Virus record (IMG/VR): IMGVR_UViG_3300017934_000004
Coordinates: 1-35,311 of that record
Length of the DNA stretch: 35,311 nucleotides
Direction: 5' to 3' (one strand)
Origin: a virus
Positions 3,552 to 35,311 of the stretch are shown in pieces. The stretch's first letter is position 1. Each line of letters begins with the position of its first letter. A model generated the notes under the pieces. It was not told the DNA's origin and ran no database searches. It was given only the letters and a program-made list of their open reading frames with translations. The position numbers were made by a program, and so were the translations under genes.

Positions 3552-3559
3552 GAAATACA

Positions 3560-6156: not shown

Positions 6157-6722
6157 CGCCGGTTAAGATGGCTTCGCAAGTCTATCGCGATCAGTTCGGC
6201 TTTCAGCGCGAGCACTCCAAGGGGCGAGTGTTAAACGTGGGCTCGAATACCGACGGCGCCAAACTCGCAGCCGATTTCGGCGCTATCAACGTCGATATGC
6301 GCATCGTCGATCACGTTTCTGGTTTTGTTTTGCCGGTGGCGGTCTTGGCCGATGCGCGCGCCCTACCGTTTGCTGGTGCCTTCGATACGGTGGTACTAGG
6401 TGAAATTCTCGAACACATGGAGCCTGCCGATGCCGTTCGCTCGTTACGCGAGGCAGTCGCGGCGATCCACGACAGCGGCCAGGTGGTTATCACCATGCCG
6501 CACGACGGTCGGCGCGAAACAGGAGAGATCGAAACGCCGCAGGGCGAAAAACAGTTTTATGCGCCAGGCATCTACGCGTATCACTACCGATCCATCAGCC
6601 GGCTAGAGCTGCTCGCGTGGATCCGCGAGGCAGGCTTGCGCGCCGAAGTGATCGCGCGAATTATTTACGTATGGGGTGAGCAGGGATCCGGAATCGTAGC
6701 GCGAAAGTGGTGCGAGGCATGA
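6153..6722 (+). CDS. Class I SAM-dependent methyltransferase
   Basis: Motif I VLNVGSNTDG, acidic loop, then ALPFAGAFDTVVLGEILEHM. TTGA overlap with the GT4 stop after a ggggg SD (alternative ATG at 6168). Confidence 0.75.
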   Translation: MTPVKMASQVYRDQFGFQREHSKGRVLNVGSNTDGAKLAADFGAINVDMRIVDHVSGFVLPVAVLADARALPFAGAFDTVVLGEILEHMEPADAVRSLREAVAAIHDSGQVVITMPHDGRRETGEIETPQGEKQFYAPGIYAYHYRSISRLELLAWIREAGLRAEVIARIIYVWGEQGSGIVARKWCEA

Positions 6723-7465
6723 TCCGGCACAAACTCATCGGCACAGTTGCATACATGGGCGGCACGATGGCCGTGCCGGAAGCCTTCGCCTGGTCCTGGG
6801 GGCAGCTCATGCGGCACACTGAGGCCGTAATTTGCGGGCCTCATGAGCATATCCACCCTACGCGCTCGACGGTGAGCCTGCACGATTGGGGCCGCAACCA
6901 AATCGTCAGCGACCTGCGCGGCGAGTGGCTTTTTATGCTCGACAACGATTTAGCTTTTGAGCCCGACCTATGCGCTCGCATGTTGGCGATCGCGAACCGC
7001 TATGAGCTCGACGTGGTGACCGGAATTTATTCGTACAAGTCGCCGCCTCACTATCCGGTGTTGTATCTCTACAACCATGAAAGCGGGCAAAACGAAATCG
7101 TCGCCGAATGGGAGCGGAGCTGCGAAGTCTTTCGCGTGGATTCTGCCGGTGCCGGCTGCCTGTTCGTTCGCCGCAGTGTGTTCGAGCGGATCGCACGCGA
7201 GCTCAAGGTTAACCCGTTCGATCGGATCGGGCGCAAGGGTGAAGATCATTCGTTTTTCGAGCGGCTGCGCGAGCTCGGAATCCCGGCCTGGTGCGCATGG
7301 AATATCGAAGTACAGCACCTAGCCGTTTTGGGACTTCAAACCTCGGTGCATTTCAAGCCGACGCGCGAGCCCGATCATTACTACGACGGGCAAGGTTTTG
7401 AAAGAGAAGGGGCTGGCGTAAAGGCGCCGCCACAATTGGGAGAAAAGGAGCAACTAGCACTATGA
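6719..7465 (+). CDS. Glycosyltransferase, GT-A fold (GT2-like)
   Basis: DxD-type motif FMLDNDLAFEPD. GAGCLFVRRSVFERI. GEDHSFFERL. ATGA overlap with the methyltransferase stop. Confidence 0.75.
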   Translation: MIRHKLIGTVAYMGGTMAVPEAFAWSWGQLMRHTEAVICGPHEHIHPTRSTVSLHDWGRNQIVSDLRGEWLFMLDNDLAFEPDLCARMLAIANRYELDVVTGIYSYKSPPHYPVLYLYNHESGQNEIVAEWERSCEVFRVDSAGAGCLFVRRSVFERIARELKVNPFDRIGRKGEDHSFFERLRELGIPAWCAWNIEVQHLAVLGLQTSVHFKPTREPDHYYDGQGFEREGAGVKAPPQLGEKEQLAL

Positions 7466-7807: not shown

Positions 7808-8416
7808 ATGAAATCCACCGTGATAGCGGAAATGCTCGGGATCCTCGGCCGTGCCGAGGCTTCCCGAGCACGGAATGAGCTGCCGGCATTCGCGCAACTG
7901 CGGAGCACGCTCGCGGCCGCCTTTGCATTGGGTTTATACACAGACGCGGATCTTGATGTTTCTGTTTTCATTGACGCGCTAGAGCGAGCGCAGTCGGCGG
8001 CCGAGGTTATGATGCCGGCCGCCGCCATCCGCCAGAAGCTAGAGCCGCTCACGGAAGACGAGGCAACGGGTGCGACCGGTATCGAGCTGCAGACCTATCC
8101 GCCGGCGGTCGAAATCCTCCCGATGGCTCTGGCTGAAGCGCAACAGAGTGAGGCGCCGCCGGCGCCGGCCGCTTTGCCTGCGCACGTTATTAGCGTTCTC
8201 ATCGGTATTCTTGACGCGATCGATGAGGCGCAAACATTGGACGACGTAGCGAGGGGCGTCGCCGTGGCACGTCAGTTTTTACACGATGCCGCGGGCACCA
8301 GTGGAATCCGTAAACCCGAGGCGCCGGCGGCCGATCAAACCGCGCCGGCGGAAACCGACCAGGCCGAAGGCGCATCGGCGCCCGAAGTCGAGGCCGAAAA
8401 CGCAGGGGGTAATTAG
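7808..8416 (+). CDS. Acidic Ala/Glu/Asp-rich helical protein (scaffold-like by position and composition)
   Basis: In-frame ATG at 7808 of track ORF 7664..8416. 202 aa, strongly acidic. Lies directly upstream of the basic membrane protein and the capsid-like gene. Confidence 0.5.
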   Translation: MKSTVIAEMLGILGRAEASRARNELPAFAQLRSTLAAAFALGLYTDADLDVSVFIDALERAQSAAEVMMPAAAIRQKLEPLTEDEATGATGIELQTYPPAVEILPMALAEAQQSEAPPAPAALPAHVISVLIGILDAIDEAQTLDDVARGVAVARQFLHDAAGTSGIRKPEAPAADQTAPAETDQAEGASAPEVEAENAGGN

Positions 8417-9249
8417 TGGCAGTTGCGACACGTACGACCATCATCCCTAACCGCGGGCGACGCCGGCCCGCGGTTAGGCCGATCTCGCCGCACAGGAAAC
8501 GTGCGGGGGCAAAGCGGGCGAAAAATCCATCCGATGTGATCGGATGGACTATGAACAAGGGCCGAAAGTCGGCACAGAAAGGGCGAGGTTTTACAATGGC
8601 ACAGAAATCGAAAAAGAAAAAGAAATCCGCGGCCGGCGCGCGGCCTGTCATCATCATGCGGGCGAACACCGGCAAGAAGCAAAACCGGAAAAACGCCGGC
8701 CACCACAAGCATCATCACGCGATGAAGCACAACAGAGGCCGGCATCATCATGTTCGCCATAATATCGGCGGCGGACGGATGCGCGGAGTGAGCGACCTGG
8801 TGATTAACGGTGTTTTCGTGATCGCCGGCGCGTTGGGCTCGAAACTCATCGCGCAAATGGTGCTCGGTGCCAACAACACAGGCATTATGGGGTACGGCGT
8901 GAGTCTCCTCGCCGGCACTGCGCTTTGGTTTGCAACCGACAAGCTCTTGAAGAATCCCGCGGCCTCGGCCGGCGTGATCTCGGGAACGATCGTGCAAATC
9001 ATCATCCGTCTGCTCAACGACTACACGCCTTTCGGCACGTACGTTGCGAGCCTTGGCATGGGTGACTACCAGGCGCAGGCGTTCCTTACGCCTCAAATCC
9101 TGGTCGATCCGTACAAAAACTCCACTATCAAATTTCCCGCGGCTCTCATGCCGCCGGCGCCTAGCGCGCCGCCGCCGTCGAAAACCATGCCGGCGTCGGT
9201 GGGCGTGAGCGGGTTTGATCCGCTCTATGGTGGCCGCAGCATTTACTAA
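8416..9249 (+). CDS. Basic His/Lys-rich protein with hydrophobic C-terminal half
   Basis: TAGTG overlap (alternative ATGs at 8551 and 8596). KKKKK and HHKHHH..GRHHHVRH tracts. 2-3 hydrophobic helices. LGMGD at 9052..9066. Confidence 0.55.
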   Translation: MAVATRTTIIPNRGRRRPAVRPISPHRKRAGAKRAKNPSDVIGWTMNKGRKSAQKGRGFTMAQKSKKKKKSAAGARPVIIMRANTGKKQNRKNAGHHKHHHAMKHNRGRHHHVRHNIGGGRMRGVSDLVINGVFVIAGALGSKLIAQMVLGANNTGIMGYGVSLLAGTALWFATDKLLKNPAASAGVISGTIVQIIIRLLNDYTPFGTYVASLGMGDYQAQAFLTPQILVDPYKNSTIKFPAALMPPAPSAPPPSKTMPASVGVSGFDPLYGGRSIY

Positions 9250-9307: not shown

Positions 9308-10057
9308 ATGCACGCGAAACAATTCGATTTCCGTAAACGGCCAACCCTCGAACAGTTGGCCGCGTGGCTTGAAACGCACACGATTGGAGGCGGGGCCTAT
9401 GGCCCCAATCCCAATCAGAACCCCAGCGGCCAGATTCTCGACGCGACCGAGGCGCAGGGCCGCAACACGAACTCGATCATGGAGGGCTGGGTCGATCGTG
9501 GTCCCTGGCAGTACTGGGATACGATTCCATTTATCGCCGGCGCGCAGGTAGCACAAAGCTACTCGCCGTTTTCGGTGCCGATCGGCCAACAGGATCCGAT
9601 CACGAACACCACGAAAACCAAACTGCAGACCAACCTGCAGCGTGGCAACCAATTCCCGCCGCCGAAATGCCTGCTGCTCATGGCAATCGGCTTTTACTTC
9701 GATCCGACCTGGGCGCTTTCCGATATCCAGGCAGTTTTGAACGCATGCTATATGCAGTTCAAAATCGACGACAAGATTTTCCACGAGGGTTTTCTGTGGG
9801 ACTTCCCGCCGGGCGGTGCGATCACCGGCTTTACGCAAAACTCGGGCGATTCGACTTTCACGCTCGGACTGCCGGCGCCGCAGTACCAACGCCGGTATGG
9901 TGATTGGGCGAAGTACATCGCGCCGATTCAGCAATTCTCGATGGACCTGATTTTCGGCGGTGGCGGCGTCGCCATCCCGACGGTAGGCGTCGCCGAGGGG
10001 CCGAATAACTACCTCATCGTGCAGCTCGACGGCCTGACCGATCGGTCGGTACAGTAG
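9308..10057 (+). CDS. Putative major capsid-like beta-sandwich (jelly-roll-like) protein
   Basis: Strong SD aagggag 8 nt upstream. 249 aa, beta-rich. Followed by an 8-bp stem-loop. Has a shorter paralog at 26847..27398. The capsid role is inferred from position, expression signals and strand pattern only. Confidence 0.55.
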   Translation: MHAKQFDFRKRPTLEQLAAWLETHTIGGGAYGPNPNQNPSGQILDATEAQGRNTNSIMEGWVDRGPWQYWDTIPFIAGAQVAQSYSPFSVPIGQQDPITNTTKTKLQTNLQRGNQFPPPKCLLLMAIGFYFDPTWALSDIQAVLNACYMQFKIDDKIFHEGFLWDFPPGGAITGFTQNSGDSTFTLGLPAPQYQRRYGDWAKYIAPIQQFSMDLIFGGGGVAIPTVGVAEGPNNYLIVQLDGLTDRSVQ

Positions 10058-10813: not shown

Positions 10814-11188
10814 ATGTTCGAGGGACTCCGACAAGCCGATGCTGTGCTCGACGCCTGCGGGCGTGAAGTCGCGCCGCCGGGCTACAAGTTTGTGGACCTT
10901 CCTTATGTCATTCCACAGAAAGCGACGTTTACCAGTGGCGGCCCGACGCCGTTTCAAATCCGCGTGAAAAACAACGGGCTCACGGCGTTCCGCTGTAAGG
11001 GCATCGTGATCGATTGCATCTTACCGATCCGTATAAAGTGGCCGTCGGGCCGCTATCTCGCTCAGGGGCCGAGCTGGCCGGGCTCGGCTGGCTCGCCCAT
11101 CGGCGCCGGTGGAAACTTGATCGCGCTGAACGAGGAAGTCGAGATTGAAAGCGGCGCGAATATCGTCATCGAGGTTTCGCAGCCATGA
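10814..11188 (+). CDS. Truncated beta-sandwich domain protein (paralog of the N-terminal domain of 13942..14937, lacking the last strand)
   Basis: Roughly half of aligned residues are identical to 13942 aa 8-135 (VLDACGR..PPGY..VDLP, F-x-C-[KR]-G, IRI[KR]WP.GRYL.QGP, IALxxExEIExGAxIxIE). It ends at IEVSQP, before the IQFWGV strand. Confidence 0.65.
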   Translation: MFEGLRQADAVLDACGREVAPPGYKFVDLPYVIPQKATFTSGGPTPFQIRVKNNGLTAFRCKGIVIDCILPIRIKWPSGRYLAQGPSWPGSAGSPIGAGGNLIALNEEVEIESGANIVIEVSQP

Positions 11189-12315
11189 CCGAAATAGTAG
11201 ATTCCTTCGGCCTGTACGTGCTTACCTCGGTGAGCCCTGGCGCGAGCCAGAACTCGCTTACCACGTTTTGGAATGCGATCGGGCCTGGTGGTTTCACTAT
11301 GGGCGTGCAGGCTGGCGCCGGCGACCGTGGCAATCCGGCGCTTTATCTTCCGTTCGGCGCCGCGATTTGCAAAACAGTTTCGCATCAGCCGACATACACG
11401 CTCGGCCTCCGCGTTTCAATGAGCTGCGTCGCCGGCGTCGGCGGCGGATCTTCTTTTCTTCAGTTCTGCAACTGCGGTTTCGCGCTCTGCTCTCTCCGCG
11501 TGAACCCCGATGGCTCGATTCTGGTCTACGGAAACAATGTCGGTAGCACTGTGATTTTCACGGCGCCGGCGGGCACCTTGACGGCGGCGACGCAAACCTA
11601 TCTCGAATTGACGGCGACCGTCACGGCCGATGTGCTCGGCGACATGAGCGTAACGGCCGAGGCTTGGGTCAACTCAGTTTCGATCGGCAGCGGATCCGCT
11701 GCGCTCGGCCGGAACATCAGCACGCTCAAAAATGCGGCTGCGAATTTCAACCAGATTTTCATTTTTTCCGGCGTCGCGACGAACGGCCAGGCGTTTGTGT
11801 CCGACCTGTACCTAAACAATGGGCAAGGGCCGACGAACACCGGCCGGCTCTCGCTTTTGCCGCCGAATAATACGGCGCCGTTTGTGATCGTTGAGCCGCT
11901 TGTACCTAACGCTGACACATCGCCGCTCAATTGGACGCCGCTCGCGCCTGGCCCGCACTTCAGCGAGATCAACGAGGTTCCCGCCGACGGCGATGCGTCT
12001 TACAACTTCGCGGCGGCCGCGGCAGCCGGCACGATCGACAATTACCGCTGGCAGCCGATCTCTACTTTTGTAGGAACCGTGCAATCGGTGCAGCTCCGCT
12101 ATCAGGCGCGCTCGACCGCGGCCGGTCCGGCCGGCTATCGTTCGACTGTAGGAATCGGCGGGATCGAGGCGACGGGACAAAAAGCCGGGCTCTGTAGTTC
12201 CTATACTTACCAGGGCTCGCAGACATTCGACCTTGATCCGCGTACCGGGCTGCCCTGGGCACAGCCGAATTTTAACTTGAAACCGTTCGGCGTCGAAGTG
12301 GTGGCACTGCCATGA
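11185..12315 (+). CDS. Fibre/spike-like protein, LamG/concanavalin-like N-terminal domain (inferred)
   Basis: ATGA overlap at both ends. 376 aa, beta-rich, Gly/Asn/Thr-rich. Composition is typical of phage receptor-binding proteins. No direct motif proof. Confidence 0.5.
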   Translation: MTEIVDSFGLYVLTSVSPGASQNSLTTFWNAIGPGGFTMGVQAGAGDRGNPALYLPFGAAICKTVSHQPTYTLGLRVSMSCVAGVGGGSSFLQFCNCGFALCSLRVNPDGSILVYGNNVGSTVIFTAPAGTLTAATQTYLELTATVTADVLGDMSVTAEAWVNSVSIGSGSAALGRNISTLKNAAANFNQIFIFSGVATNGQAFVSDLYLNNGQGPTNTGRLSLLPPNNTAPFVIVEPLVPNADTSPLNWTPLAPGPHFSEINEVPADGDASYNFAAAAAAGTIDNYRWQPISTFVGTVQSVQLRYQARSTAAGPAGYRSTVGIGGIEATGQKAGLCSSYTYQGSQTFDLDPRTGLPWAQPNFNLKPFGVEVVALP

Positions 12316-13955
12316 GCCTGCTGTACGACGACGATTTCCAGAGCTATGCAGTCGGCGCATTCCCGCCTTATGGAAACCTGTTTAATATCGCGATTATTGC
12401 GCCGAAGATCGCAAACAGTGTCCCGCCTGGTGGCGTTTTTGGTGCCGCCAAGTACGTTAACATGGCCTCGCTGCCGAGCCTCATCTGGCCGACGACGACA
12501 CCTTCGACGGCACTACCGGCTTACTCTGAATTTTCCGTTTTCCAGCACGTGCTCATCCTGGGCGGCCAGGGGAGCGATGAACAGGGCGCGATTTTGCAGT
12601 TCAATTGCAACCTAAGCCCATTCGCAGGCATAAGCCTCGCTGCGCTGCGCGTTCTCTCCGATGGAACTCTCGCATTTACGGCACCGCAGAGCTCGGCCTT
12701 TTCTCCGAATCAGTTTGTTTCAAACGATTCGATTCTGGTCAATGCCTGGTACTCGATCCAGACCAACGTTCGGTTTTTCGCGGCCGGTGCATTCGTCGGC
12801 GTCGATGTCGAGGTAGCGATCAATAACAAGTCGGTTTTTGCCGGCAGTTTCGTGACCACTCAAACGGTGGCATCGCTGCCGGCCCTATTCGTAAACAATC
12901 TAATTTTCGGTGGACTCGGCGGCGGCTGCGCTTATGGCCGTATCACCGTTTCTGATACAATCCTCCCGATCGGCGCCGATCCCCATGCCGGCACACCCGA
13001 CGTGCGTGTGACGCAAGGCGCGATCGAGCTCATACTCGCGGCGTCTGGTGGCCTGCCGGTGCCAGTGTGCCCTATCGGTGGCGGTAACGCGACGGTCGGG
13101 CAACTCTACAACAAGACATTGACCGCAAGCGGCGGCATTCCGCCTTACACCTGGAATGTAACCGGCCTGCCGCCCGGCATCACATTCAATCCGGTAAGCG
13201 GGCAATTGCTCGGGATCCCGACCACGCCAGGCACGTTTACATACCTGGCGACGGTTACCGACCTGGCGACGGCGATGGGCTCGGTTAACTGCACGATTGT
13301 AGTCGTCGCCTCGCTCACCGTCGATATTCAGTTTTGGGGCGTGCTCCGTTTCCTGGTGCCGGTTGGATCTGGCGACGGCGACGCCGCTGAGTATTCGGCG
13401 ATCGGGCGCCAGGCATTACGCAGCCTGGCCGCGATCGCGCTTAGGGCGGCCTCAGTGCTGCTCGACCAGTTGGCGCGCACCCTGGCGCCGGCGAGCTCAG
13501 GGCGCCGCCTGCAGCTCGCCGCGTCGCCGGCGTCGGCCGTTAAAATTCCGATCCCTATGCCGGCCGCTCTGGAAACTGCAGCGGATAAGTGCAACTTGCG
13601 ACCGTTTGTGCAACCGGTTGCACAAACGACGCGAGAAACAAATGAGTTAGGTATATCCTTAACACTATCATCGCCTCGCATTCGCTTTTCTGGCGGTTTC
13701 AGTTTTTCTTGGCGGCCATTCGTGCAACCGGTTGCACAAACGACGCGAGAAACAAATGAGTTAGGTATTCCCTTAACACTATCATCGCCTCGCATTCGCT
13801 TTTCTGGCGGTTTCAGCTTTTCTTGGCGGCCATTCGTGCAACCGGTTGCACAAACGACGCTAGAAACAAACGGCTTAGGTATTTTACCCTGCCATTTGGC
13901 AGGGGCTCATAAAACGCCGACGTTTTTAGGGGAGGGTATCAGTGGCGCAGCTTAG
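12312..13955 (+). CDS. Fibre/spike-like protein with Ig-like (He_PIG-type) domain; 3' third reads through a 114-bp repeat array
   Basis: Residues 248-332 (13053..13307), containing GQLYNKTLTASGGIPPYTWNVTGLPPGITFNPVSGQLLGIPTTPGTFTY, match the putative Ig domain consensus. VDIQFWGVLRF at 13320..13352. No stop until 13953. GC3 falls from about 75 to about 38 percent inside the repeats, so the real C-terminus is uncertain. Confidence 0.55.
   Translation: MSLLYDDDFQSYAVGAFPPYGNLFNIAIIAPKIANSVPPGGVFGAAKYVNMASLPSLIWPTTTPSTALPAYSEFSVFQHVLILGGQGSDEQGAILQFNCNLSPFAGISLAALRVLSDGTLAFTAPQSSAFSPNQFVSNDSILVNAWYSIQTNVRFFAAGAFVGVDVEVAINNKSVFAGSFVTTQTVASLPALFVNNLIFGGLGGGCAYGRITVSDTILPIGADPHAGTPDVRVTQGAIELILAASGGLPVPVCPIGGGNATVGQLYNKTLTASGGIPPYTWNVTGLPPGITFNPVSGQLLGIPTTPGTFTYLATVTDLATAMGSVNCTIVVVASLTVDIQFWGVLRFLVPVGSGDGDAAEYSAIGRQALRSLAAIALRAASVLLDQLARTLAPASSGRRLQLAASPASAVKIPIPMPAALETAADKCNLRPFVQPVAQTTRETNELGISLTLSSPRIRFSGGFSFSWRPFVQPVAQTTRETNELGIPLTLSSPRIRFSGGFSFSWRPFVQPVAQTTLETNGLGILPCHLAGAHKTPTFLGEGISGAA
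13594..13885. repeat. Tandem repeat, 114-bp unit, about 2.6 copies
   Basis: Units 13608..13721 and 13722..13835 are 111/114 identical. A third partial unit starts at 13836. Each begins with the palindrome GTGCAACCGGTTGCAC. Confidence 0.9.
13608..13851. promoter_or_regulatory. Three copies of the 16-bp palindrome GTGCAACCGGTTGCAC, 114 bp apart
   Basis: Exact copies at 13608..13623, 13722..13737 and 13836..13851, upstream of the gene starting at 13942. Confidence 0.7.
13887..13926 (+). other. Two short hairpins between the repeat array and the 13942 start
   Basis: ccctgcc-attt-ggcaggg (13887..13904) and aaaacg-ccga-cgtttt (13911..13926), followed by a ggagg SD. Confidence 0.4.
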
Positions 13956-14937
13956 AATGCAACCGCTACGTGAGGCCGATATGGTGCTCGACGCGTGCGG
14001 CCGGCGGCAACCGCCGCCGGGTTACCGTTGGGTCGATTTACCGGCCGTGCTGCCGTTCAACTGGTCACAATTCGCGACCGTAGCGCCAGTGACGCCGGCG
14101 CAGGGACGCGTTGCCAACAATTCCAAGGCGAATTTTATTTGCCGCGGCGTGATGATTCAGAGCCCGGTCGGTGTGCGGATCCGCTGGCCTGGCGGCCGCT
14201 ATCTCTCGCAAGGGCCTACTTGGGTCGGCGTGCCGACCGTGCCGGGCAATCCGATCGCGACCGGCGGAAGTATGATCGCGCTCGACAGCGAGCAGGAAAT
14301 CGAGCGCGGCGCAAAAATCGCGATCGAAATGTCGGGCGGCACTGCCGGCCTGGTTAATATACAATTTTGGGGCGTGCGACGGTACTTACTTATGCAACCG
14401 AAAAACGGCGGCGCCGGCAGCTCGCCGGCGATGATTCCGGATCCGATCGACGAGCTGGAAGCACGGCCACGCTATCGGTGCGGGCCGCCTCAGAACATCA
14501 TGGCGCCCGAGTGGTACCTCGGAAACCAATGCACGCCGGAAACGCCGGCAGGTTACGAAGATGAGCCCTTTACATTCTTCTCGCCGCCGATCACCGTGCC
14601 CGTCGCAAAGCAGAATTTCAATAACGCCGTGATCGTGCCCGGCGGCGACGATGTGATTATCCGGCGGTACCGGGCAATCACCGATTACAGCGGGCTCGGT
14701 GGAGCCAGCTCGACGATTCCGGTATTCTCGCTGCGGCTGCCTAATGGCTATTCAGTCACCGGCGGCGATCTTGTTCCGACGCCGTTTCTGTTCTGGATCC
14801 CGATGTTTCCGACGATCCGCCTGCATCCCGGCGATCGGATCATACTCGACGTGGCCGACATGCAACCGGTCGGTACGGGCTCGGTGACGACGACGTTTGA
14901 ATTTGAGGGCGTGAAACGGAGGAAACTCATAGTATGA
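13942..14937 (+). CDS. Two-domain beta-sandwich protein (domain family F-x-[CL]-R-G .. F-x-G-x-[KR])
   Basis: GTG start 6 nt after ggagg. Domain 1 has FICRGV, IRIRWPGGRYL, AKIAIEM, VNIQFWGVRR. Domain 2 has VIIRRYRAI, FSLRLPNGY, LHPGDRIILDV, FEFEGVKRR. Confidence 0.7.
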   Translation: MAQLRMQPLREADMVLDACGRRQPPPGYRWVDLPAVLPFNWSQFATVAPVTPAQGRVANNSKANFICRGVMIQSPVGVRIRWPGGRYLSQGPTWVGVPTVPGNPIATGGSMIALDSEQEIERGAKIAIEMSGGTAGLVNIQFWGVRRYLLMQPKNGGAGSSPAMIPDPIDELEARPRYRCGPPQNIMAPEWYLGNQCTPETPAGYEDEPFTFFSPPITVPVAKQNFNNAVIVPGGDDVIIRRYRAITDYSGLGGASSTIPVFSLRLPNGYSVTGGDLVPTPFLFWIPMFPTIRLHPGDRIILDVADMQPVGTGSVTTTFEFEGVKRRKLIV

Positions 14938-18413: not shown

Positions 18414-19478
18414 ATGGCAATCGCTCCAGTAGCTCACGCGACCGCGGCGGGGCCGAATAGTGCGACGACACCAGCGCAGGACACGAGCACTGCGAATCTC
18501 ATAGTCCTTTCGGCCTTAACCGGGCCGCTCGCGGTGGGGCCGGCCGTGCAGGATAGTAACCATAACATCTGGACGCCGCTCAACGGAAACCGCGGCGGCG
18601 GATTTTTCTGGAATCAGTTTTTTTACTGCATTAATCCAGTTGTCGGGCCGGGCCACACGTTCACCATAAACGATGCCGGCGGTTTCGGCTCTATCCAGAT
18701 GACGGCCTGGAGTGGCGCCGCGGGAGGCTTCGACTTACAAGGGGCTGATTTTGGCGGATCGACAACGCAGCCACTCACTCCGAGCGTAAACGGATGCCTC
18801 GTTGTCGCTTCCTACGTCGGCAGCAATGACATAACAAGTGTCAATCTTCCCTTCGCTCTCAGCGATACCGAGCCGTTTACCGGCGGCGTCAATTACGCCT
18901 CGGGCACGGCTTTCGTCATCCAAACGACGGCCATCCTGGCGCAGTGTACGTTTAACGGAGTCGGCTCAGGCGGTCCGCTGTCAATTGCATCTTTCAAACC
19001 GTCGGCAACGGCTACCACGATCACGCCACCAGCAGGCGCACTCGCGACGGCCACATTTGCGCCACTGCTCACCGATACGATCACGCCAGGCGCCGCGGCT
19101 CTCGCGATCGCGACCTTTGCGCCAGCACTGATCGGCGGATTATTGGTGCCGACCGGTGCGCTCAGCCTGCAAGGTTTCGCGCCGGCTCTGACGCGCACAA
19201 TACCGGTGCCAGCGGGCGCGCTTACGCTCGCGACCTTCGCCCCGCTGCTGGGCGAGGTAGTCGGGCCAGTGCCGCCGGCTCATCTGGTGCTGACAACCTA
19301 TGCGCCGAAACTGGTGTTTTCATTTGGGCCGGCTGCCGGCAATCACGCCGCCGCCTGGTGGTGGAGCGGCGCGGCGGCGCGCATGATAAACGATGCCGGT
19401 TTTCAACTGCTGGTGGAGCCGCACTTACAGAATGAGAATTACACCGGCGAGCCGCAACCGGATGAGGGCGCGCCATGA
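18414..19478 (+). CDS. Fibre-like protein with five 20-aa tandem repeats
   Basis: 354 aa. Globular N-terminal domain, then 5 x (I/V)xPxAGALxLATFAPxLxxx. Confidence 0.65.
   Translation: MAIAPVAHATAAGPNSATTPAQDTSTANLIVLSALTGPLAVGPAVQDSNHNIWTPLNGNRGGGFFWNQFFYCINPVVGPGHTFTINDAGGFGSIQMTAWSGAAGGFDLQGADFGGSTTQPLTPSVNGCLVVASYVGSNDITSVNLPFALSDTEPFTGGVNYASGTAFVIQTTAILAQCTFNGVGSGGPLSIASFKPSATATTITPPAGALATATFAPLLTDTITPGAAALAIATFAPALIGGLLVPTGALSLQGFAPALTRTIPVPAGALTLATFAPLLGEVVGPVPPAHLVLTTYAPKLVFSFGPAAGNHAAAWWWSGAAARMINDAGFQLLVEPHLQNENYTGEPQPDEGAP
19020..19319 (+). repeat. Five in-frame 60-bp tandem repeats inside 18414..19478
   Basis: Units start at 19020, 19080, 19140, 19200 and 19260. The first two share atcacgcca and all share the ..gcgc.ct....c.....c.t..gcgcc core. 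Confidence 0.8.
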
Positions 19479-19506
19479 TTGCGAAGGCGATTTCGAGGGC
19501 TGTTTC

Positions 19507-20121
19507 ATGAACCTTGCCGCCATCAGGCCGCGCCGGCAAATGCCGCACCCGGTACTTTACGCGCCGCGGCGCCGCGGCGGCCTGGCCGGCTACGGCCTAG
19601 GCGTCGTGCAAGTGCTTGCACCGTCGCAAACGGCTACGATCGCGAGCACGATTCAGCAAGTCGAGGGCTACTATCCTGGCTCGCTCGCGTATCAGAATAA
19701 CAACCCTGGAAACCTGGTCTACGTCGGCCAGACAGGGGCCTCGCCCGGCGCCGGCGGGTTTGCGCAATTCCCGAGCTACTCGGCCGGCCTGCAGGCGCTC
19801 GACGATCAGATACAACTCTATGCCGCCCGCGGCATGACGATTTCTCAAATGATGAACACGTACGCGCCGGCCTCGGCCGGCAATAATCCGACAGCGTACG
19901 CGAACCAAATCGCCGGCGCGCTCGGTGTGGATCCATCAACCTCGCTGCTCGACCTGGCTGGGTTTTCGACCAGCTCGCCGGCGCCGCTGCCTGCCCTGCC
20001 CGATGTCTCGACGTGGGCGAGCTGGCTACCGGACTTTTCGAGTATCGACCCGTCGAGCCTGGCAATGATCGCCGGCGGCCTGCTGCTCGGAATTGTTGTG
20101 CTCAACGTCACCGGCGACTAG
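19507..20121 (+). CDS. Tail-anchored protein with NNNPGN motif domain (possible cell-wall-active or virion-associated protein)
   Basis: In-frame ATG at 19507. Basic leader ..RRRGGLAGYGLGV. YQNNNPGNLVY..GFAQFPSYSAGLQAL..YAP..NNPTAYANQIA. C-terminal helix LAMIAGGLLLGIVVL. Confidence 0.55.
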   Translation: MNLAAIRPRRQMPHPVLYAPRRRGGLAGYGLGVVQVLAPSQTATIASTIQQVEGYYPGSLAYQNNNPGNLVYVGQTGASPGAGGFAQFPSYSAGLQALDDQIQLYAARGMTISQMMNTYAPASAGNNPTAYANQIAGALGVDPSTSLLDLAGFSTSSPAPLPALPDVSTWASWLPDFSSIDPSSLAMIAGGLLLGIVVLNVTGD

Positions 20122-26251: not shown

Positions 26252-26850
26252 TTCCCCCCCTTATCCTCGGCCTCGGCCAAAGTGCGGCCGACGACGCTTT
26301 TACTGGACTTCAATTCAGTAGCGATCTCGCGCAGGCTATAGCCGGCATCTCGCAGCTCGCGCACGCGTATCCTGTCGAGCACTGCCGGCCGGCGGCCGCC
26401 GATGACGCCATTCGCCCTGGCGCGCGCCAGACCGGCCCTAACGCGGGCCTGCATCGTTAGGCGTTCCTGCTGCGCGATAAATGCCGCAATCGCGATGAGC
26501 AGCTCGCCGGCAGGGCCGGCAGTTCTGAAATGCTCCTCGTTCATGCTCCATAACTGCACGCCGGAACTGCGCAGCCTAGCAATGAGCTCGAACGCGCTCG
26601 CAGGCCCGCGGCGGGTGAGCCGGCTTAGATCGAACACCAGCACGGTATCAAAGTCGCGCCGGGCCGCGTCCCGCATCAAAGCCTCAAGGCCGGGCCGCGC
26701 GGAGCTCGCGCCAGTGATTTCATCGGTGTAGACTGCGGCGACTTTCCAACTCATCGCCGCGGCGTATTTCCGAAGGGCGCGGACCTGGCTACTGAGGTTC
26801 TGCTTTCCGTCCGACGTGCTGATTCGGGCATAGACGCCTGCGGTTTTCAT
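26248..26850 (-). CDS. Small serine recombinase (resolvase/invertase family)
   Basis: N-terminal GVYARISTSDG (catalytic Ser context). D..LVFDLSRLTR. C-terminal HTH GYSLREIATELKSSKSVV. 200 aa. Confidence 0.9.
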   Translation of the reverse strand: MKTAGVYARISTSDGKQNLSSQVRALRKYAAAMSWKVAAVYTDEITGASSARPGLEALMRDAARRDFDTVLVFDLSRLTRRGPASAFELIARLRSSGVQLWSMNEEHFRTAGPAGELLIAIAAFIAQQERLTMQARVRAGLARARANGVIGGRRPAVLDRIRVRELRDAGYSLREIATELKSSKSVVGRTLAEAEDKGGK

Positions 26851-27398
26851 TGGAGCGCTAACACTCCCTGCAAGTAGAACCGCAAACCGCGCTCGGCCGC
26901 CAAGTCAAGCGCGTCGCCGGCAATCTCTAGCCTAAAATCGGATTGAGGCGCGATCGCAATTTGAGGCGCGATCGGTTGCCAGGCCGCCGAGCTAAACGCA
27001 TTCGGCGCCATCAGGGCCAGCGGCGCCGCGAAATAGGTCTTGCCGCCAATCACTAGCTGGCATTCAAACGCGTCAAGGATCCGCGCCGCCTCGGCGACCG
27101 GAATATCGCCGAGGCCGCTCCATCCGATCGAGCGAATAGCAAAATTCGTCGGGCTCGGTCCAGTGAAAAGTATCTCACGCGTTTCCTTGCCCGGCTGCAG
27201 CATGACGGTATCCCAGATAGACCAATCCTGCAGCCAGGAATCCGCCCAACCCTCAATGATTGGATTACGCGTGCGCATGCTCGCGATCGCGTCGGCGAAG
27301 TGCGGAAGCGGCGGCTGTACTAACTGCTCTGGCTTGACCGCGAGGGCCGCGGCCAGCATCGCAAGAAATGACCGACGGCTTACGGGCTCGATGCTCAT
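26847..27398 (-). CDS. Tat-signal-bearing short paralog of the capsid-like protein
   Basis: N-terminus MSIEPVSRRSFLAMLAAALAV (SRRxFL twin-arginine pattern). IIEGWADSWLQDWSIWDT, FAIRSIGW, CQLVIGGKTYF, IAPQSDFRLEI, FYLQGVLALQ align with IMEGWVDRGPWQYWDT, LLMAIGFY, CYMQFKIDDKIF, IAPIQQFSMDLI, YLIVQLDGLTDRSVQ of 9308..10057. Confidence 0.65.
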   Translation of the reverse strand: MSIEPVSRRSFLAMLAAALAVKPEQLVQPPLPHFADAIASMRTRNPIIEGWADSWLQDWSIWDTVMLQPGKETREILFTGPSPTNFAIRSIGWSGLGDIPVAEAARILDAFECQLVIGGKTYFAAPLALMAPNAFSSAAWQPIAPQIAIAPQSDFRLEIAGDALDLAAERGLRFYLQGVLALQ

Positions 27399-27619
27399 AA
27401 AATCCTTTCTTTCCCCTCCCCGTACAATTCGGCATAGGCGGCGAAGCCGTAGCGGAATCCATCAAGAAAACACGCGGCCAGGCAACCTAGGATTATGCCG
27501 ACAAGCAGCAACGGGAAACCTAGCCATACTGTGATAACTCCAAGAATCACCTGACCCAGGTTTATTGGTTCGGGTGGCGGCACCGGAGATTTATGCTCGC
27601 TGTCCATGATGGTTTTCAT
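27395..27619 (-). CDS. Small two-helix membrane protein
   Basis: ATGA overlaps at both ends. VILGVITVWLGFPLLLVGIILGCLAACFL. Confidence 0.55.
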   Translation of the reverse strand: MKTIMDSEHKSPVPPPEPINLGQVILGVITVWLGFPLLLVGIILGCLAACFLDGFRYGFAAYAELYGEGKERIL

Positions 27620-27840
27620 ATTCGGGTTAGACCCTTGAGTATCCGCACAGCGCGCATTCCAACGATCCAGGCATGAACCGCGATGTATGCCTCACCGCTG
27701 CAATTTCGCCCGGCCTCGATCGAGTTAAGCACACGCGGCGTTATTCCAATCTCGCGGGCCGCATCGTGGCAACTAAGGCCGGCTGCCGCGCGCAGGCTGC
27801 GCACGATGCTGCAAAAATCTTGATAGTCGTTTCCGATCAC
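27616..27840 (-). CDS. XRE-family helix-turn-helix transcriptional regulator
   Basis: LRAAAGLSCHDAAREIGITPRVLNSIEAGRN matches the HTH_3 pattern. GTGA overlap with the upstream stop. Confidence 0.7.
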   Translation of the reverse strand: MIGNDYQDFCSIVRSLRAAAGLSCHDAAREIGITPRVLNSIEAGRNCSGEAYIAVHAWIVGMRAVRILKGLTRI

Positions 27841-28136
27841 GCACGACCCTTTCGCTCGGTTAGCTGGTGACTCGCAACTCTCACGCCGATCAGCTCGGCA
27901 GCCTCGAAAATTGTGTCGGCGTGGCCGGTTCCGACCAGCTCTTTTTTATGGTAAACGGCCCATGCAATCCGTTGCACACCGAGCACCCAGTAGCGAGCGA
28001 AAACAAACCGGAAACCGCGGCGGCTGCCTTTCCATTTTCCGGTTTTTGCCAAGCCGCGAGTGATGTCGCCGCGAGCTCGGGCAGTGAGGATTTCGGTAGC
28101 CGCAATCATACCGCTAGTGGCTAGAGTGTCCCACAA
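27837..28136 (-). CDS. Hypothetical protein, first gene of the leftward operon
   Basis: 99-aa ORF with a TTG start (alternative ATG at 28109). No SD seen. Confidence 0.45.
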   Translation of the reverse strand: MWDTLATSGMIAATEILTARARGDITRGLAKTGKWKGSRRGFRFVFARYWVLGVQRIAWAVYHKKELVGTGHADTIFEAAELIGVRVASHQLTERKGRA

Positions 28137-28180
28137 ACTCTAGTTTGGGTCAATTTTTTTTGGTTGAAAAAGTACCAAAT

Positions 28181-28243
28181 GTGCAACCGGTTGCACGGCG
28201 AGTTTGTGCAACCGGTTGCACGAAAACGCGCAACCGGTTGCAC
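28181..28243. promoter_or_regulatory. Three clustered copies of the palindrome (operator, iteron or res-like array)
   Basis: GTGCAACCGGTTGCAC at 28181..28196 and 28206..28221, and GCGCAACCGGTTGCAC at 28228..28243. Lies in the divergent region between 28136 (-) and 28564 (+). Confidence 0.75.
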
Positions 28244-28244
28244 G

Positions 28245-28324
28245 ACGTATCTCTATTACATTTAGAAGAATCTTTAGAAGAACTAACAGCAGCAGCTAAA
28301 GGTACTACTAGCGGGCTGCTGCTG
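28245..28324. other. AT-rich segment with 2 x TTTAGAAGAA, then a 10-bp stem-loop (origin-like unwinding region)
   Basis: tttagaagaa at 28261..28270 and 28273..28282. cagcagcagc (28287..28296) pairs with gctgctgctg (28315..28324). This is the most AT-rich patch I noticed in the window. Confidence 0.5.
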
Positions 28325-28563: not shown

Positions 28564-29637
28564 ATGAACGCACCCGCCCAACAAACCGGCCAATTTTTTT
28601 ACGTTCCAAACTCACTCACCGAAAACCAGATGTTTTTGACTCATGCCGAGCTGGCAATGGCCCTGATCGTGTTGAGGCGATCCCACAGCAACAAGGGCGG
28701 GGCGGTACCGGTGAGTGATGAAAACTGGAAAAACTGGACCGGCCTCAGTATTCGGCAAAAAAAATATGCTGTCGCCGGCCTTGAAAAAAAAGGCCTACGC
28801 ATCGAGGGCCGCGGCGATCGCGCGCGTTACGCCTGGCAGTTCGATATGTGGGAATCGTACGCGCGGCAAACGGCGATCGAGCAGCGCGCGAAAACCGAGG
28901 GCCGGAAACCCGCGCCAGTGCCGGCGAAAAAGGGCGCAATGGTACATCCGGAATGCGCTGCCGGCTGCGCGATGCTACAACAGACACCGGCGAAACTTGT
29001 GCTGCTACCGGCCGGCCAAATTGAACAGGCTTGGCCTGAAACCCTCAGTACGATCCGGCAAGCGTTCCCGCCGGTCACTGGCGCATTTCTGGCGCGCCTG
29101 GTCGGCGTAGTGAAAGCCTCGATCGGCACCGTAACCGATGCCGAGCTCGCGCACGCGGTCACCATCGCGTACAAACGGCAGCAGCGTAGCGAGGGCCTAT
29201 TTCTCGACACGGTGCCCGAGGCGCTCGCCGCGCTTCGGCGCGTGAAGGCAAAGCCGGTACTGCCGGCAGCCGGCGACGTGGATCCGGCCGCGATCGAGCA
29301 GCGCATCGGCGAAGTGCTCACGATTCTATCAGCCGACAACTGGGCCTCGGCCGCGCTCTGCGCCGATCTCGAAAAACTGCGCGATCGCGTGAAGTCTACC
29401 GAGCTGCAGCAGCTCGATGACGAAATGAACGCGCTCGAAAAGCGGATTATCAATGCGGCACATGATGCGATCGCCGAGCCACAACGCGAGAAAATCCGGC
29501 AGCGTGTCGCCGGCCAGATGAAATCCTACGCCGGCAAAATGTCGCCCGCGCAGCTCGACCAGCTCGCGCACACCATGCTAGAGCGCGAGCTCTTGCAGTA
29601 CTTCGACGTGCCGCGGCTCGGGGTCTTCTATGTGTGA
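28564..29637 (+). CDS. Putative replication initiator / winged-helix DNA-binding protein
   Basis: N-terminal FFYVPNSL..LTHAELAMALIVLRR..WTGLSIRQKKYAVAGLEKKGLRIEG resembles phage/plasmid replisome-organiser wHTH N-termini. Lies directly downstream of the iteron/AT-rich region. The function is inferred. Confidence 0.5.
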   Translation: MNAPAQQTGQFFYVPNSLTENQMFLTHAELAMALIVLRRSHSNKGGAVPVSDENWKNWTGLSIRQKKYAVAGLEKKGLRIEGRGDRARYAWQFDMWESYARQTAIEQRAKTEGRKPAPVPAKKGAMVHPECAAGCAMLQQTPAKLVLLPAGQIEQAWPETLSTIRQAFPPVTGAFLARLVGVVKASIGTVTDAELAHAVTIAYKRQQRSEGLFLDTVPEALAALRRVKAKPVLPAAGDVDPAAIEQRIGEVLTILSADNWASAALCADLEKLRDRVKSTELQQLDDEMNALEKRIINAAHDAIAEPQREKIRQRVAGQMKSYAGKMSPAQLDQLAHTMLERELLQYFDVPRLGVFYV

Positions 29638-30868: not shown

Positions 30869-30977
30869 CGGGATACCGCCAGCCAAATTAATTCATATAC
30901 AGCCATCGCCGCCAAGCACAGGAAAGCGATTCTCGGTTTTTCCATGTCCGATCGTACAGGGCCAATGTGCGCGCGCC

Positions 30978-31090
30978 AATAGAGCGCGAGTACCGTTTTA
31001 CGCTCGGGCCTTCGCCTTAGATCGGCCGGGCGCAACGTGTGCCTGCTAATAGATTGGCAGTACCGTTTTAGGCTCGGGCATTCGCCTTAC
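30978..31090. repeat. Two 43-bp imperfect direct repeats, 70-bp period
   Basis: 30978..31020 and 31048..31090 are 36/43 identical (aataga..agtaccgtttta.gctcgggc.ttcgcctta). Intergenic, just downstream of 31092..31598 (-). Confidence 0.8.
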
Positions 31091-33869: not shown

Positions 33870-35141
33870 ATGTTGCAAGACATCGAACCAACTGCCGGCA
33901 ATCGGCTCTATGACGTGAGCGCACCAGCGGCCACGGCGCCGGCCGATAGTGCGCCCGCGCGGCGCCTGGCGATCGTGCCGAAGGATCCACAGAGCACGAA
34001 ACCGCCGGTAGCTGGCGCGCGCATGGAGCGGCGCACCGTTCCCGATGATGACGACCAGGCGACGGCCGAAACCATATCAATGATGTGCGACTACATCCGG
34101 GCCGGCGTAAAGGATCCGCTCTGCGTCGCGTGGGCCGAGTGGGCTCTCGATTGTTTCGGTATGGGCGTTGATGACGCCCGCGCGAAATTTTGGGCCGTGT
34201 TCTGGTGTTTGAAACATGCGGTGAAGTACCGACGCGATGAGCCCGAGCTGTTCCGAATCGGCGAACGCAGTGCGCGTGATTTGCTAACCGCGCCGAGTGT
34301 GTTAGTGCGGCAAGCGGCGCCGGCCGAGGATTGCGACGGTTTTACGATGCTCGCATGCACACTGCTGCAGATCCTCGGTGTGCCGGCATTCATTGTCACG
34401 GCGAAAGTGGATCCGGGTGAGCCTGGCCGCTGGTCACATGTATTCGCGATGGCCGATGTTGCCGGTGTCGGATTGTGTTCGCTGGATGGTTCGCACGGCA
34501 AGGCGCCCGGCTGGATGGTTCCGCGATCGCACATTTTCGGTTACCAGGTTTGGGATCTTAATGGCCGCCCGATTCATAAAAAATTGCCCGTCGTGCAGCC
34601 GCGGCTGCAGGGTTACGAATATCGGCCGCGAGGCATGGGCGCGCAGCCTGGTGCGGTTCGCCGGCGCCGCGGCGTGGGCGATACCTGCGCGGTGGATCCT
34701 ACGACGGGCGTACTGTCGGATCTCACGACGGGCCTACCGTGCGGAACGAGCACCGGCCCGCTTTCTGCGCTGCCATCATCGGGCGTTTGCGTCAATGGTT
34801 TTGATACCGGCTCTGGCGATCCGTGCCTCGCGCCGACGGGCCCGCCAGCCGTAATCACTCCGATCGCCGGCACGCCAGCACCGAATCCGGCGAATGTTCC
34901 GACTGCAACGCCGAGCACACTACAGTCTATTATCAATAATCTTTTTGGTGCGGGCACCAAGATCGCCACCATCGCGACGGCGCCGGCCGGATCCACTATT
35001 TCGCCGACGGGCGCCGTCACGATCGGCGGCGCGCCGCTCATGGCTTCACTCGGGAATCTGCTGCCCTGGCTGCTGGTTGGCGGAGTGATTCTTTTTGCCG
35101 TGAATGCGGCGAGCAGCGCACCAAGTCGAGGGCGGCACTAG
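33870..35141 (+). CDS. Membrane-anchored transglutaminase-like (papain-fold) cysteine peptidase
   Basis: EDCDGFTMLACTLLQILGVPAFIV .. RWSHVFAM .. SLDGS fits the Cys-His-Asp transglutaminase-core pattern. RGMGA (34629..34643) and RGVGD (34668..34682) follow the domain. Gly/Pro/Thr-rich linker. C-terminal helix LPWLLVGGVILFAV. Confidence 0.65.
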   Translation: MLQDIEPTAGNRLYDVSAPAATAPADSAPARRLAIVPKDPQSTKPPVAGARMERRTVPDDDDQATAETISMMCDYIRAGVKDPLCVAWAEWALDCFGMGVDDARAKFWAVFWCLKHAVKYRRDEPELFRIGERSARDLLTAPSVLVRQAAPAEDCDGFTMLACTLLQILGVPAFIVTAKVDPGEPGRWSHVFAMADVAGVGLCSLDGSHGKAPGWMVPRSHIFGYQVWDLNGRPIHKKLPVVQPRLQGYEYRPRGMGAQPGAVRRRRGVGDTCAVDPTTGVLSDLTTGLPCGTSTGPLSALPSSGVCVNGFDTGSGDPCLAPTGPPAVITPIAGTPAPNPANVPTATPSTLQSIINNLFGAGTKIATIATAPAGSTISPTGAVTIGGAPLMASLGNLLPWLLVGGVILFAVNAASSAPSRGRH

Positions 35142-35170: not shown

Positions 35171-35311
35171 ATGTTACCGCGCGTGCGGAATCTGCAGCGG
35201 CCGGCCCGGCCCCGGCTGCAACTTATCAAACCGTCAACACTAGCAACACGGCGCAGCGTGCCGTCGTTTTCGGCCGGGCGGCGGCACGTGGGGTGGCAGC
35301 CGCTACTAGTA
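35171..35311 (+). CDS. Probable 5' end of the gene that continues as 14..745 across the junction
   Basis: ATG at 35171 is in frame (87 nt) with the ORF at 14 once the 67-nt overlap is collapsed, with no stop between. The start choice (ATG 35171, GTG 14 or ATG 149) is unresolved. Confidence 0.4.
   Translation, partial: MLPRVRNLQRPARPRLQLIKPSTLATRRSVPSFSAGRRHVGWQPLLV
35245..35311. repeat. Terminal direct repeat, copy 2
   Basis: Identical to 1..67. Confidence 0.9.

Follow-up and report, generated by a model that had tools for sequence, protein, structure and literature searches.

A shortened jelly-roll paralogue with a twin-arginine-type N-terminus, encoded beside a virus recombinase and probably sent to the host cell envelope

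The DNA of IMG/VR virus record IMGVR_UViG_3300017934_000004 (positions 1 to 35,311; this whole stretch of 35,311 nucleotides is referred to as the window) carries, inside an operon of regulator and recombinase genes, a gene for a protein of 183 amino acids (aa) at 26847..27398 on the minus strand, hereafter the mini gene and the mini protein. A sequence-only reading of this DNA had noticed that the product resembles a 249-aa protein encoded among the structural genes on the opposite strand, and that its N-terminus resembles a signal for translocation by the twin-arginine (Tat) route. The question raised by this locus is why a relative of a virion-type protein should carry an export-type N-terminus and be encoded together with a recombinase. 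The results described below indicate that a fold of the capsid type probably serves here in a second role, as a protein exported to the envelope of the host cell.

The ratio of nonsynonymous to synonymous substitution rates (dN/dS) was 0.28 for the mini gene against its closest relative (76% identity, contig L006), indicating that it is a real gene under purifying selection. Direct comparison of the mini protein with the 249-aa protein by BLASTP gave one match of 39 residues (41% identity, E 9e-5) over the sequence N-x-I-[IM]-E-G-W-x-D..W..WDT, and thus recovered the N-terminal box that the sequence-only reading had described as shared. The two families were then compared as profiles, using alignments of 28 members for the mini family and 40 members for the 249-aa family. 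By hhalign, the profiles matched with a probability of 97.9% (E 4.5e-13, 133 columns), mini residues 45-180 being paired with residues 55-244 of the 249-aa protein, while the probability for unrelated control profiles of the same genome was 0.2% and 0.04%. In this alignment, the 249-aa protein carries two insertions of about 26 and 16 residues relative to the mini protein, corresponding to the two internal loops that had been reported as missing. A hidden Markov model (HMM) of the mini family recognized the large paralogue both of the window and of each of the 11 related loci, with E from 8e-12 to 7.5e-4. It matched no open reading frame (ORF) of the window other than that of the 249-aa protein.

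The structures of both proteins were predicted by AlphaFold2 from separate alignments, with a predicted local distance difference test score of 84.2 for the mini protein and 73.2 for the 249-aa protein. The mini model consists of strands 56-67, 73-77, 86-96, 111-117, 120-126, 142-148, 154-161 and 170-181, with a helix at 101-110. The folds were compared as DSSP states over the hhalign alignment. The states of the two models agreed at 107 of the 132 aligned positions (81%), all strands and the single helix being in register, so that the ordered strand motifs noted before are indeed common to both. The mini protein keeps 12 of the 48 residues that are invariant in the 249-aa family; of the 48, eight belong to the deleted loops and five to the C-terminal D-R-S-V-Q tail, which is conserved in the 249-aa family and absent from the mini protein. 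Because of these losses, the mini proteins are classified by sequence as a separate subfamily outside the 249-aa family proper, and the relationship between the two appears old and asymmetric. With high confidence, the mini protein is taken as a distant homologue of the 249-aa protein, that is, a diverged and shortened paralogue. The profile homology supports the earlier term 'miniature paralogue', but the loss of three quarters of the invariant residues does not agree with the term 'copy'.

The N-terminus of the mini protein was analyzed for its likeness to Tat signals. The motif S-R-R-S-F-L at residues 7-12 (S7-R8-R9-S10-F11-L12) agrees with the S/T-R-R-x-F-L-K pattern of these signals; the arginine pair is followed by an uncharged, A/L-rich stretch of 12 residues, by A-L-A at residues 18-20, and then by K-P-E. 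In the 28 aligned members, which are otherwise 25-50% identical, R8, R9 and F11 were at least 90% conserved. The TatP expression RR.[FGAVML][LITMVF] was matched by 27 of the 30 true members of the mini family; the other three begin within the hydrophobic stretch, indicating that they are truncated gene calls. Only one of 120 proteins of the 249-aa family matched the expression, with no hydrophobic stretch behind the motif, and no twin-arginine motif was found in the other real ORFs of the window. The expression covers 97% of the TatP training set, and when used alone it wrongly selects 15% of the cytoplasmic proteins that have RR close to their start (PMC1182353). Five relatives (P0133, P0140, P0142, P0144 and P0151) carry canonical stretches of 20-25 residues with Ala-rich ends, such as MERRSFLSLLAGAFAATTISPAAAAPS at the N-terminus of P0151 from a metagenome-assembled genome (MAG) of Candidatus Binataceae, and these five N-termini are, by their sequence, ordinary Tat signals. 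The only sub-threshold family matches of the mini protein were to the Tat models, and at E<=1 the models PF10518 and TIGR01409 matched 4 and 7 of the 28 members, respectively (best E 0.0071).

Some features speak against an ordinary Tat signal in the mini protein of the window. Its score was 14.2 bits with Pfam TAT_signal (PF10518; cut-off 22.7) and 12.5 with TIGR01409 (cut-off 16.7), and both alignments covered the first half of the model only. The uncharged stretch is exactly 12 residues long in 19 of the 28 members and is followed there by [K/R/E/D]-P; its Kyte-Doolittle hydropathy averages 2.4, a high value for a Tat signal. Tat signals typically have a moderately hydrophobic stretch of about 13-20 uncharged residues, and a 13-residue rule for this stretch is used by TATFIND. 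The total signal length of the 12-residue form would be 16-21 residues, below the average of 37 residues for Tat signals (PMC1182353). The earlier description of a 'textbook twin-arginine pattern' is therefore to be divided: the motif stands, as judged from its presence in 27 of the 30 members, but the short stretch and the scores below both cut-offs do not allow the word 'textbook'. Taken together, the mini family is very probably Tat-targeted, with an unusually short form of the signal in the subfamily of the window, and export of the mini protein to the envelope is considered likely. No Cys, His or Met is conserved in the mini family, the invariant residues being only P83, P145 and G178, which leaves no lipobox and no sign of a cofactor.

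We then examined which known folds the two proteins resemble. For the mini model, the top match in PDB by Foldseek was the spore-appendage subunit Ena3A (E 4.5e-5), and Ena2A was also matched (E 2.7e-3); other matches were GOLD and CUB domains, PHM (template-modeling score, TM, 0.44) and Sulfolobus polyhedral virus 1 (SPV1; TM 0.43). The coat proteins of circovirus, bromovirus and SPV1 were matched with E between 1.6e-3 and 1.3e-2 and TM of 0.44 or below, alongside non-viral jelly rolls, and the matches in BFVD were similarly generic. The predicted mini model is thus placed among generic eight-strand jelly rolls. The Bacillus Ena appendage subunits (PDB 8pdz, 9i0y, 7a02) resemble the mini protein as small exported jelly-roll subunits, but the TM of 0.29-0.40 and root-mean-square deviation of 6.5 A are poor, and the mini family has neither the N-terminal Cys connector nor a conserved Cys; the mini protein is not a member of the Ena family.

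For the 249-aa model, a beta-sandwich, the best Foldseek E was 0.02, with weak matches to the capsid proteins of SPV1, PBCV-1, PM2 (P2) and cucumovirus. Weak matches common to both proteins were 6oj0, PBCV-1 (8h2i), birnavirus VP2 and Ena2A. Neither protein had a sequence match to solved structures, and PDB sequence searches with the profile of the 249-aa family and with three other large proteins of the window gave no match. The likeness to the single-jelly-roll capsids of membrane-containing or small icosahedral viruses (SPV1, PDB 6oj0; bromovirus and circovirus) thus lies in the predicted eight-strand beta-sandwich, and the difference in the low TM, the best E of the 249-aa model and the lack of sequence similarity to solved structures. 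We infer that the 249-aa protein is a capsid protein from its fold, its position in a conserved structural block, its rank as the most conserved protein of the lineage and its presence on nine IMG/VR viral contigs. The label 'capsid-like' of the sequence-only reading has this standing, the Foldseek matches being weak, and the label 'abundant' found no support in the analysis.

The distribution of the two families was then analyzed. A HMMER scan of 1.84 billion representatives gave about 25 small relatives of 157-206 aa, and by sequence the mini gene defines a family of about 30 small proteins that carries no annotation. Relatives of the 249-aa protein number more than 312; they are typically of about 215-220 aa, many lie on contigs of 30-38 kb, and their names are uninformative, at most 'hypothetical protein'. 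One large paralogue with 83% identity is on the 35.6-kb contig IMGVR_UViG_3300046473_000469, and a 47.9-kb contig of a Binataceae MAG is JADEYI010000555.1. The lineage was found in metagenomes of peat and soil, and also in MAGs assigned by binning to Phycisphaerales, Terriglobia and Binataceae. Except for the sub-threshold Tat models, Pfam, PHROG, NCBIfam and PADLOC contain no family for either paralogue. The 74-aa and 99-aa neighbours of the mini gene were likewise without a PADLOC family, and the operon gave only a generic helix-turn-helix (HTH) match in PADLOC. No match to the 249-aa protein was found by tblastn against 50,697 phage records; pattern scans of viral, genome and metagenome contigs with the mini protein or the alignments gave no confirmed relative, and a search of viral contigs with the recombinase of the window found nothing. 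Two long proteins, P0148 and P0149 (1171 and 1153 aa), were rejected as relatives since their weak matches (E about 3e-4) lie in short repeated stretches. A further jelly-roll paralogue without signal was detected by the mini HMM (E 1.6e-6) at L003:13275-14012, in the structural block of an element from a Phycisphaerales MAG, and a homologue of it lies at L022:1-489, just upstream of a Tat-tagged mini gene.

Eleven genomic contexts of mini genes, mostly on short contigs (L numbers), were collected by exact-protein look-ups. A gene for a serine recombinase 62-69% identical to that of the window shares a 4-nt overlap with the mini gene in L016 and L018; both contigs belong to the same lineage as the window, with the 99-aa gene upstream and, in L018, a downstream HNH gene with 90.6% identity. 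The contig of the Binataceae MAG (L001/L002) has at least five other non-structural genes in common with the window, and there the mini gene adjoins a resolvase gene in divergent orientation. In L024:3938-5172, the mini gene overlaps, again by 4 nt, a gene for a 231-aa tyrosine integrase (Pfam Phage_integrase 1.9e-35), and in L019:123-1639 it is coupled to a downstream gene for a HerA/DUF87 P-loop ATPase (8.9e-10). Other or truncated neighbours were found in L005, L017 and L021-L023. Altogether, the recombinase beside the mini gene was of the serine type in four contexts (coupled in the window, L016 and L018; divergent in L001) and of the tyrosine type in L024. This linkage is the strongest contextual signal for the mini gene, and its recurrence indicates that the gene belongs to an integration or maintenance module, and not to the virion module. 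The gene directly upstream was the 99-aa gene in L016 and a gene for a soluble protein of 58-59 aa in L018 and L006, so that neither the two-helix membrane protein nor the HTH gene of the window is a conserved partner.

Based on these observations, we propose the following scheme. The 215-249-aa jelly-roll virion-type protein of the lineage would have been duplicated, and the duplicate would then have lost the two loops and the invariant C-terminal tail and gained the N-terminal twin-arginine signal. Within the operon as observed, the gene would be transcribed leftward from an operator-bearing region together with those for the HTH regulator and the recombinase. The product would fold in the cytoplasm, possibly as an oligomer, as capsid-type jelly-roll proteins often do; such a pre-folded and perhaps oligomeric jelly roll would explain the use of the Tat route, which carries folded proteins. 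As suggested by the conservation of the motif, the host Tat translocase would recognize S-R-R-S-F-L and move the protein across the cytoplasmic membrane, after which it would be either cleaved after A-L-A (residue 20) or retained in the membrane by its short helix. In the envelope, it would act as a virus-specific accessory factor, most likely blocking the entry of related viruses, or the loss of progeny on cell debris; by analogy, it would do so by occupying a component of the envelope with which the homologous virion protein has to interact. A virus-directed role in the envelope is indicated by the virion-type nature of the only relative of the mini protein and by the finding of the family only in virus-like contexts. 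The whole chain, leading to a Tat-exported single-jelly-roll accessory protein that belongs to the early/lysogeny module and acts in the envelope, is offered tentatively, being somewhat short of an even chance; superinfection exclusion or receptor masking is the leading function by analogy, at a confidence that must still be called low.

Exclusion genes expressed in lysogens often adjoin integrase and repressor genes, and the usual exclusion proteins located in the envelope are T5 Llp, phi80 Cor, TP-J34 Ltp and T4 Imm/Sp. The mini protein resembles these proteins (T5 Llp, Cor of phi80 and N15, Ltp of Streptococcus phage TP-J34, T4 Imm/Sp and also P22 SieA) in being small, in having an export signal, in being encoded outside the structural genes and beside regulator and recombinase genes, and in its predicted action in the envelope. 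In contrast to Llp, Cor, Ltp, Imm/Sp and SieA, which are Sec-exported lipoproteins or membrane proteins unrelated to virion proteins, the mini protein has no lipobox and no Cys, but has a twin-arginine motif and a virion-type jelly-roll paralogue. Another likeness is to filamentous-phage pIII acting on periplasmic TolA and to the retroviral Fv-4 and Fv1, where a resident derivative of a virion protein meets the incoming virus. However, pIII is the virion protein itself, not a shortened paralogue, and uses Sec, whereas the mini protein has only a quarter of the invariant residues and has the conserved loops deleted. The mini protein is thus of a known kind, a virus-encoded accessory protein targeted to the envelope, and is unusual in its virion-type jelly-roll descent and its twin-arginine signal. 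In the literature, no Tat-dependent phage exclusion protein, exported capsid homologue or bacterial portoglobovirus-like virus was found.

Besides the peculiarities of the signal, other observations are unfavourable to the proposed scheme. The linkage to a recombinase is not universal, since the neighbours differ in L019, L005, L017 and L021; the mini gene and the large paralogue were seen in one genome only in the window, the 10-kb flanks elsewhere being too short; the absence of Pfam, PHROG and PADLOC matches for the mini protein also counts against it; and scans for promoters and terminators performed no better than with shuffled sequences and gave no convincing promoter. The loss of the loops, the tail and 36 of the 48 invariant residues of the 249-aa protein weakens the proposal of a look-alike decoy. 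That the mini protein is an unrelated small protein with an RR pair near its start could be argued from the shortness of the pairwise BLASTP match (39 residues) and the 15% false-positive rate of the TatP expression (PMC1182353), but this reading is scarcely credible: it was refuted by the profile homology (hhalign E 4.5e-13, with clean negative controls), by the match of the mini HMM to all 11 large paralogues, by the agreement of DSSP secondary structure, and by the conservation of the motif across a family of 25-50% identity. A passenger of a mobile recombinase cassette, or a gene switched on an invertible segment as with Mu Gin and P1 Cin, would make the position of the mini gene uninformative on lysogeny. 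The exchange of the partner for a non-orthologous recombinase (serine versus tyrosine) with the same 4-nt overlap, and the PHROG best match of the recombinase, 'DNA invertase', agree with such a cassette. No convincing inverted repeats were detected, however, the best pairs (30 nt at 77% and 16 nt at 88%) lying inside coding sequence, and the neighbours on both sides are conserved in order in L018 (99-aa gene upstream, HNH gene downstream), as would fit vertical inheritance within a module. We consider this alternative very improbable, and an invertible segment or shufflon was rejected in the absence of credible inverted repeats around 26.2-27.6 kb or of pairing with 9.3-10.1 kb.

The remaining alternatives accept the homology and differ in what the protein does. 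It could be an exported factor of lysogenic conversion or host fitness, which binds a glycan or protein of the envelope as lectins and carbohydrate-binding modules do, or which alters host properties by assembling at the surface or in the periplasm. The evidence for export serves this idea as well as it serves the virus-directed role; the best Foldseek matches include non-capsid jelly rolls (Ena3A, Ena2A, GOLD, CUB, PHM), most of the residues invariant in the 249-aa family are lost, and the gene is in an accessory position beside recombinase genes. However, with all TM at 0.44 or below the fold match is generic, the mini family lacks both the conserved Cys of Ena subunits and the metal ligands of PHM, and it occurs only in virus-like contexts, its sole detectable sequence relative being a virion-type protein; a host factor is regarded as unlikely. 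Alternatively, the mini protein might be a component of the virion or its morphogenesis, delivered to the periplasmic face of the cytoplasmic membrane and from there to a virus membrane or an exit site; or its N-terminal helix might not be an export signal but the membrane- or capsid-binding arm of a minor capsid or vertex protein. This reading is favoured by the homology to the presumed major virion protein; related viruses have extra jelly-roll paralogues in the structural block (L003), one of them upstream of a mini gene (L022); the mini gene of L019 is coupled to a HerA/FtsK-type ATPase, the packaging class of membrane-containing jelly-roll viruses; and among the products of the structural block are membrane-anchored proteins and a very basic one with membrane helices. 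But the mini gene of this genome is in a regulator and recombinase operon, on the opposite strand from the structural block and 17 kb away from it; a near-invariant RR-x-F-L is required for Tat recognition, while its use in a simple membrane arm would not be obvious; the 12-residue helix is too short to span a membrane; and neither the conserved loops nor the C-terminal tail of the virion-type paralogue is present. These points make a virion component quite unlikely, and an exported, virus-directed accessory protein is the reading that we retain.

The features of the locus are listed in Table 1. The 5' end of the mini gene reads ...GGGGAGGGGAAAGAAAGGATTTTATGAGC, with a purine-rich ribosome-binding site ahead of the ATG, which shares ATGA with the stop codon of the upstream gene for the two-helix membrane protein. 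At the 3' end (CTCCAATGAAAACC), the stop codon overlaps the ATG of the serine recombinase gene, for which the PHROG best match was 'DNA invertase' (1.3e-41). The translational coupling on both sides claimed by the sequence-only reading was thus read in the DNA, and the gene map and the HTH and Resolvase matches confirmed the position in a regulator and recombinase operon on the strand opposite the structural genes, within a leftward gene block at 24.8-28.1 kb. The two-helix protein overlaps the mini gene as described, but as a partner it is specific to this genome, as no gene for it precedes the mini gene in L016, L018 and L006.

Table 1. Positions of the mini gene, its parts, its large paralogue and its neighbours in the window
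Feature	Position	Strand	Basis or remark
Mini jelly-roll protein gene, 183 aa, ATG start	26847..27398 (including stop codon)	-	ORF list, DNA reading, dN/dS, family
Twin-arginine-type signal, codons 1-21, MSIEPVS-RR-SFLAMLAAALAV	27336..27398	-	RR at 27372-27377
Predicted jelly-roll core, 8-9 strands, codons 45-181, starting with the NPIIEGWAD..W.IWDT box	26856..27266	-	hhalign, AlphaFold2
249-aa jelly-roll protein, large paralogue; most conserved protein of the lineage, presumed major virion protein	9308..10057	+	Relatives, model, weak Foldseek matches
Small serine recombinase of resolvase/invertase type, C-terminal HTH, 200 aa	26248..26850	-	Pfam Resolvase 4.1e-34, HTH_38
74-aa protein with two predicted membrane helices	27395..27619	-	About 32 consecutive hydrophobic residues; stop overlaps mini start
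74-aa Cro/CI-type HTH regulator, same operon	27616..27840	-	Pfam HTH_31 2.7e-6, HTH_3 5.4e-6; GTGA overlap
First gene of the operon, 90-99 aa, no assigned function	27837..28136	-	Homologues upstream of the mini gene in L006, L016 and L018
16-bp palindrome GTGCAACCGGTTGCAC, three perfect copies, divergent control region	28177..28247	.	Upstream of the operon
Replication-initiator-like gene, divergent from the operon across the control region	28564..29637		PHROG 'replication initiation O-like' 2.6e-4

The three palindromes in the control region are candidate operators. In the window, GTGCAACCGGTTGCAC occurs in six copies in two clusters; the copies of the control region are 22-25 bp apart, and the other three lie in a 114-bp sequence repeated three times in tandem at 13598-13939, at the 3' end of the 547-aa ORF 12312..13955. 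This repeat casts doubt on the last 115 or so codons of that ORF, and the palindromes may serve as operators, as looping sites, as iterons or as a partition site. Scans for tRNA genes as integration sites gave nothing informative. Two further repeats were noted, an intergenic 70-bp sequence duplicated in tandem at 30950-31089, and 60-bp periodic repeats at 19017-19244 which give a repetitive segment of the T-I-T-P-P-A-G-A-L type in the 354-aa ORF 18414..19478.

The window itself ends in an exact direct repeat of 67 bp (1-67 = 35245-35311), indicating that the contig is complete and that the genome, of about 35,244 bp, is circular or terminally redundant. Genes of the structural block (14-21447) are on the plus strand, and neither PHROG nor Pfam gave a match to terminase, portal, HK97-type capsid or tail proteins in this block. 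Across the 35 kb, no terminase, portal or HK97-type capsid protein was detected and no plausible ORF contained a Walker-A ATPase. The only recognizable domains of the structural block were a He_PIG immunoglobulin domain (12312..13955) and a lytic transglycosylase (19393..20121). The missing hallmark genes, together with the conserved jelly-roll protein, suggest an undescribed and possibly tailless virus lineage, the virion of which may be built on a single-jelly-roll protein; a portoglobovirus-like build without packaging ATPase is speculation.

Several other proteins of this genome deserve mention. Directly upstream of the 249-aa gene lies that of a 277-aa protein (8416-9249), which every related locus conserves. 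Its N-terminal half is extremely basic and K/R/H-rich, several hydrophobic helices come after it, and the protein is a candidate for a membrane-anchored DNA-condensing protein. The gene for this protein is preceded, inside the structural block, by a cluster at 4897-7465 for a GT4/GT1-type glycosyltransferase (419 aa), a methyltransferase (189 aa) and a GT2 glycosyltransferase (252 aa); the cluster is conserved in the close relatives L007, L015 and L011, and may glycosylate a virion protein. A 448-aa protein (3548-4894), conserved in all related loci and without match in PDB, Pfam or PHROG, has a basic and variable N-terminal half and a His-rich, strongly conserved C-terminal part of about 160 residues (FHGRP...LH.H...GGDQS...HKFG). 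The lineage-conserved 423-aa protein at 33870-35141 carries a C-terminal membrane helix and the pattern E-D-C-D-G-F...W-S-H-V-F...D-G-S-H-G, which in the alignment, with no family match, is reminiscent of the Cys-His-Asp triad of transglutaminase-like or papain-like proteins. A second pair of paralogues is formed by a 124-aa protein (10814-11188) and the N-terminal third of a 331-aa protein (13942-14937), which are 51-53% identical; the hhalign probability between their family and the mini family was 41.7%.

If the proposed scheme is true, a structural virus fold has been re-used as an exported protein, and a Tat-dependent member would be added to the accessory proteins by which prophages act on the envelope. 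Re-use of virion genes is well known for retroviral genes in animals; to our knowledge, such re-use of a structural fold is undocumented for bacterial viruses. In its most specific and rather improbable form, the proposal describes a temperate, tailless virus lineage of soil and peat bacteria, in which a trimmed jelly-roll duplicate fitted with a Tat signal would be exported to the periplasm to block entry or mask a receptor, and would be carried in a cassette with a recombinase of either family; if so, it would be the first exclusion protein of this sort, Tat-dependent and derived from a capsid fold, in a bacterial virus. The pair of the mini and 249-aa proteins gives access to a virus lineage with virion genes that resemble hardly anything known, and the repeated fusion of the mini gene to a serine or tyrosine recombinase gene is a testable genomic rule, which may be used to find similar accessory genes.

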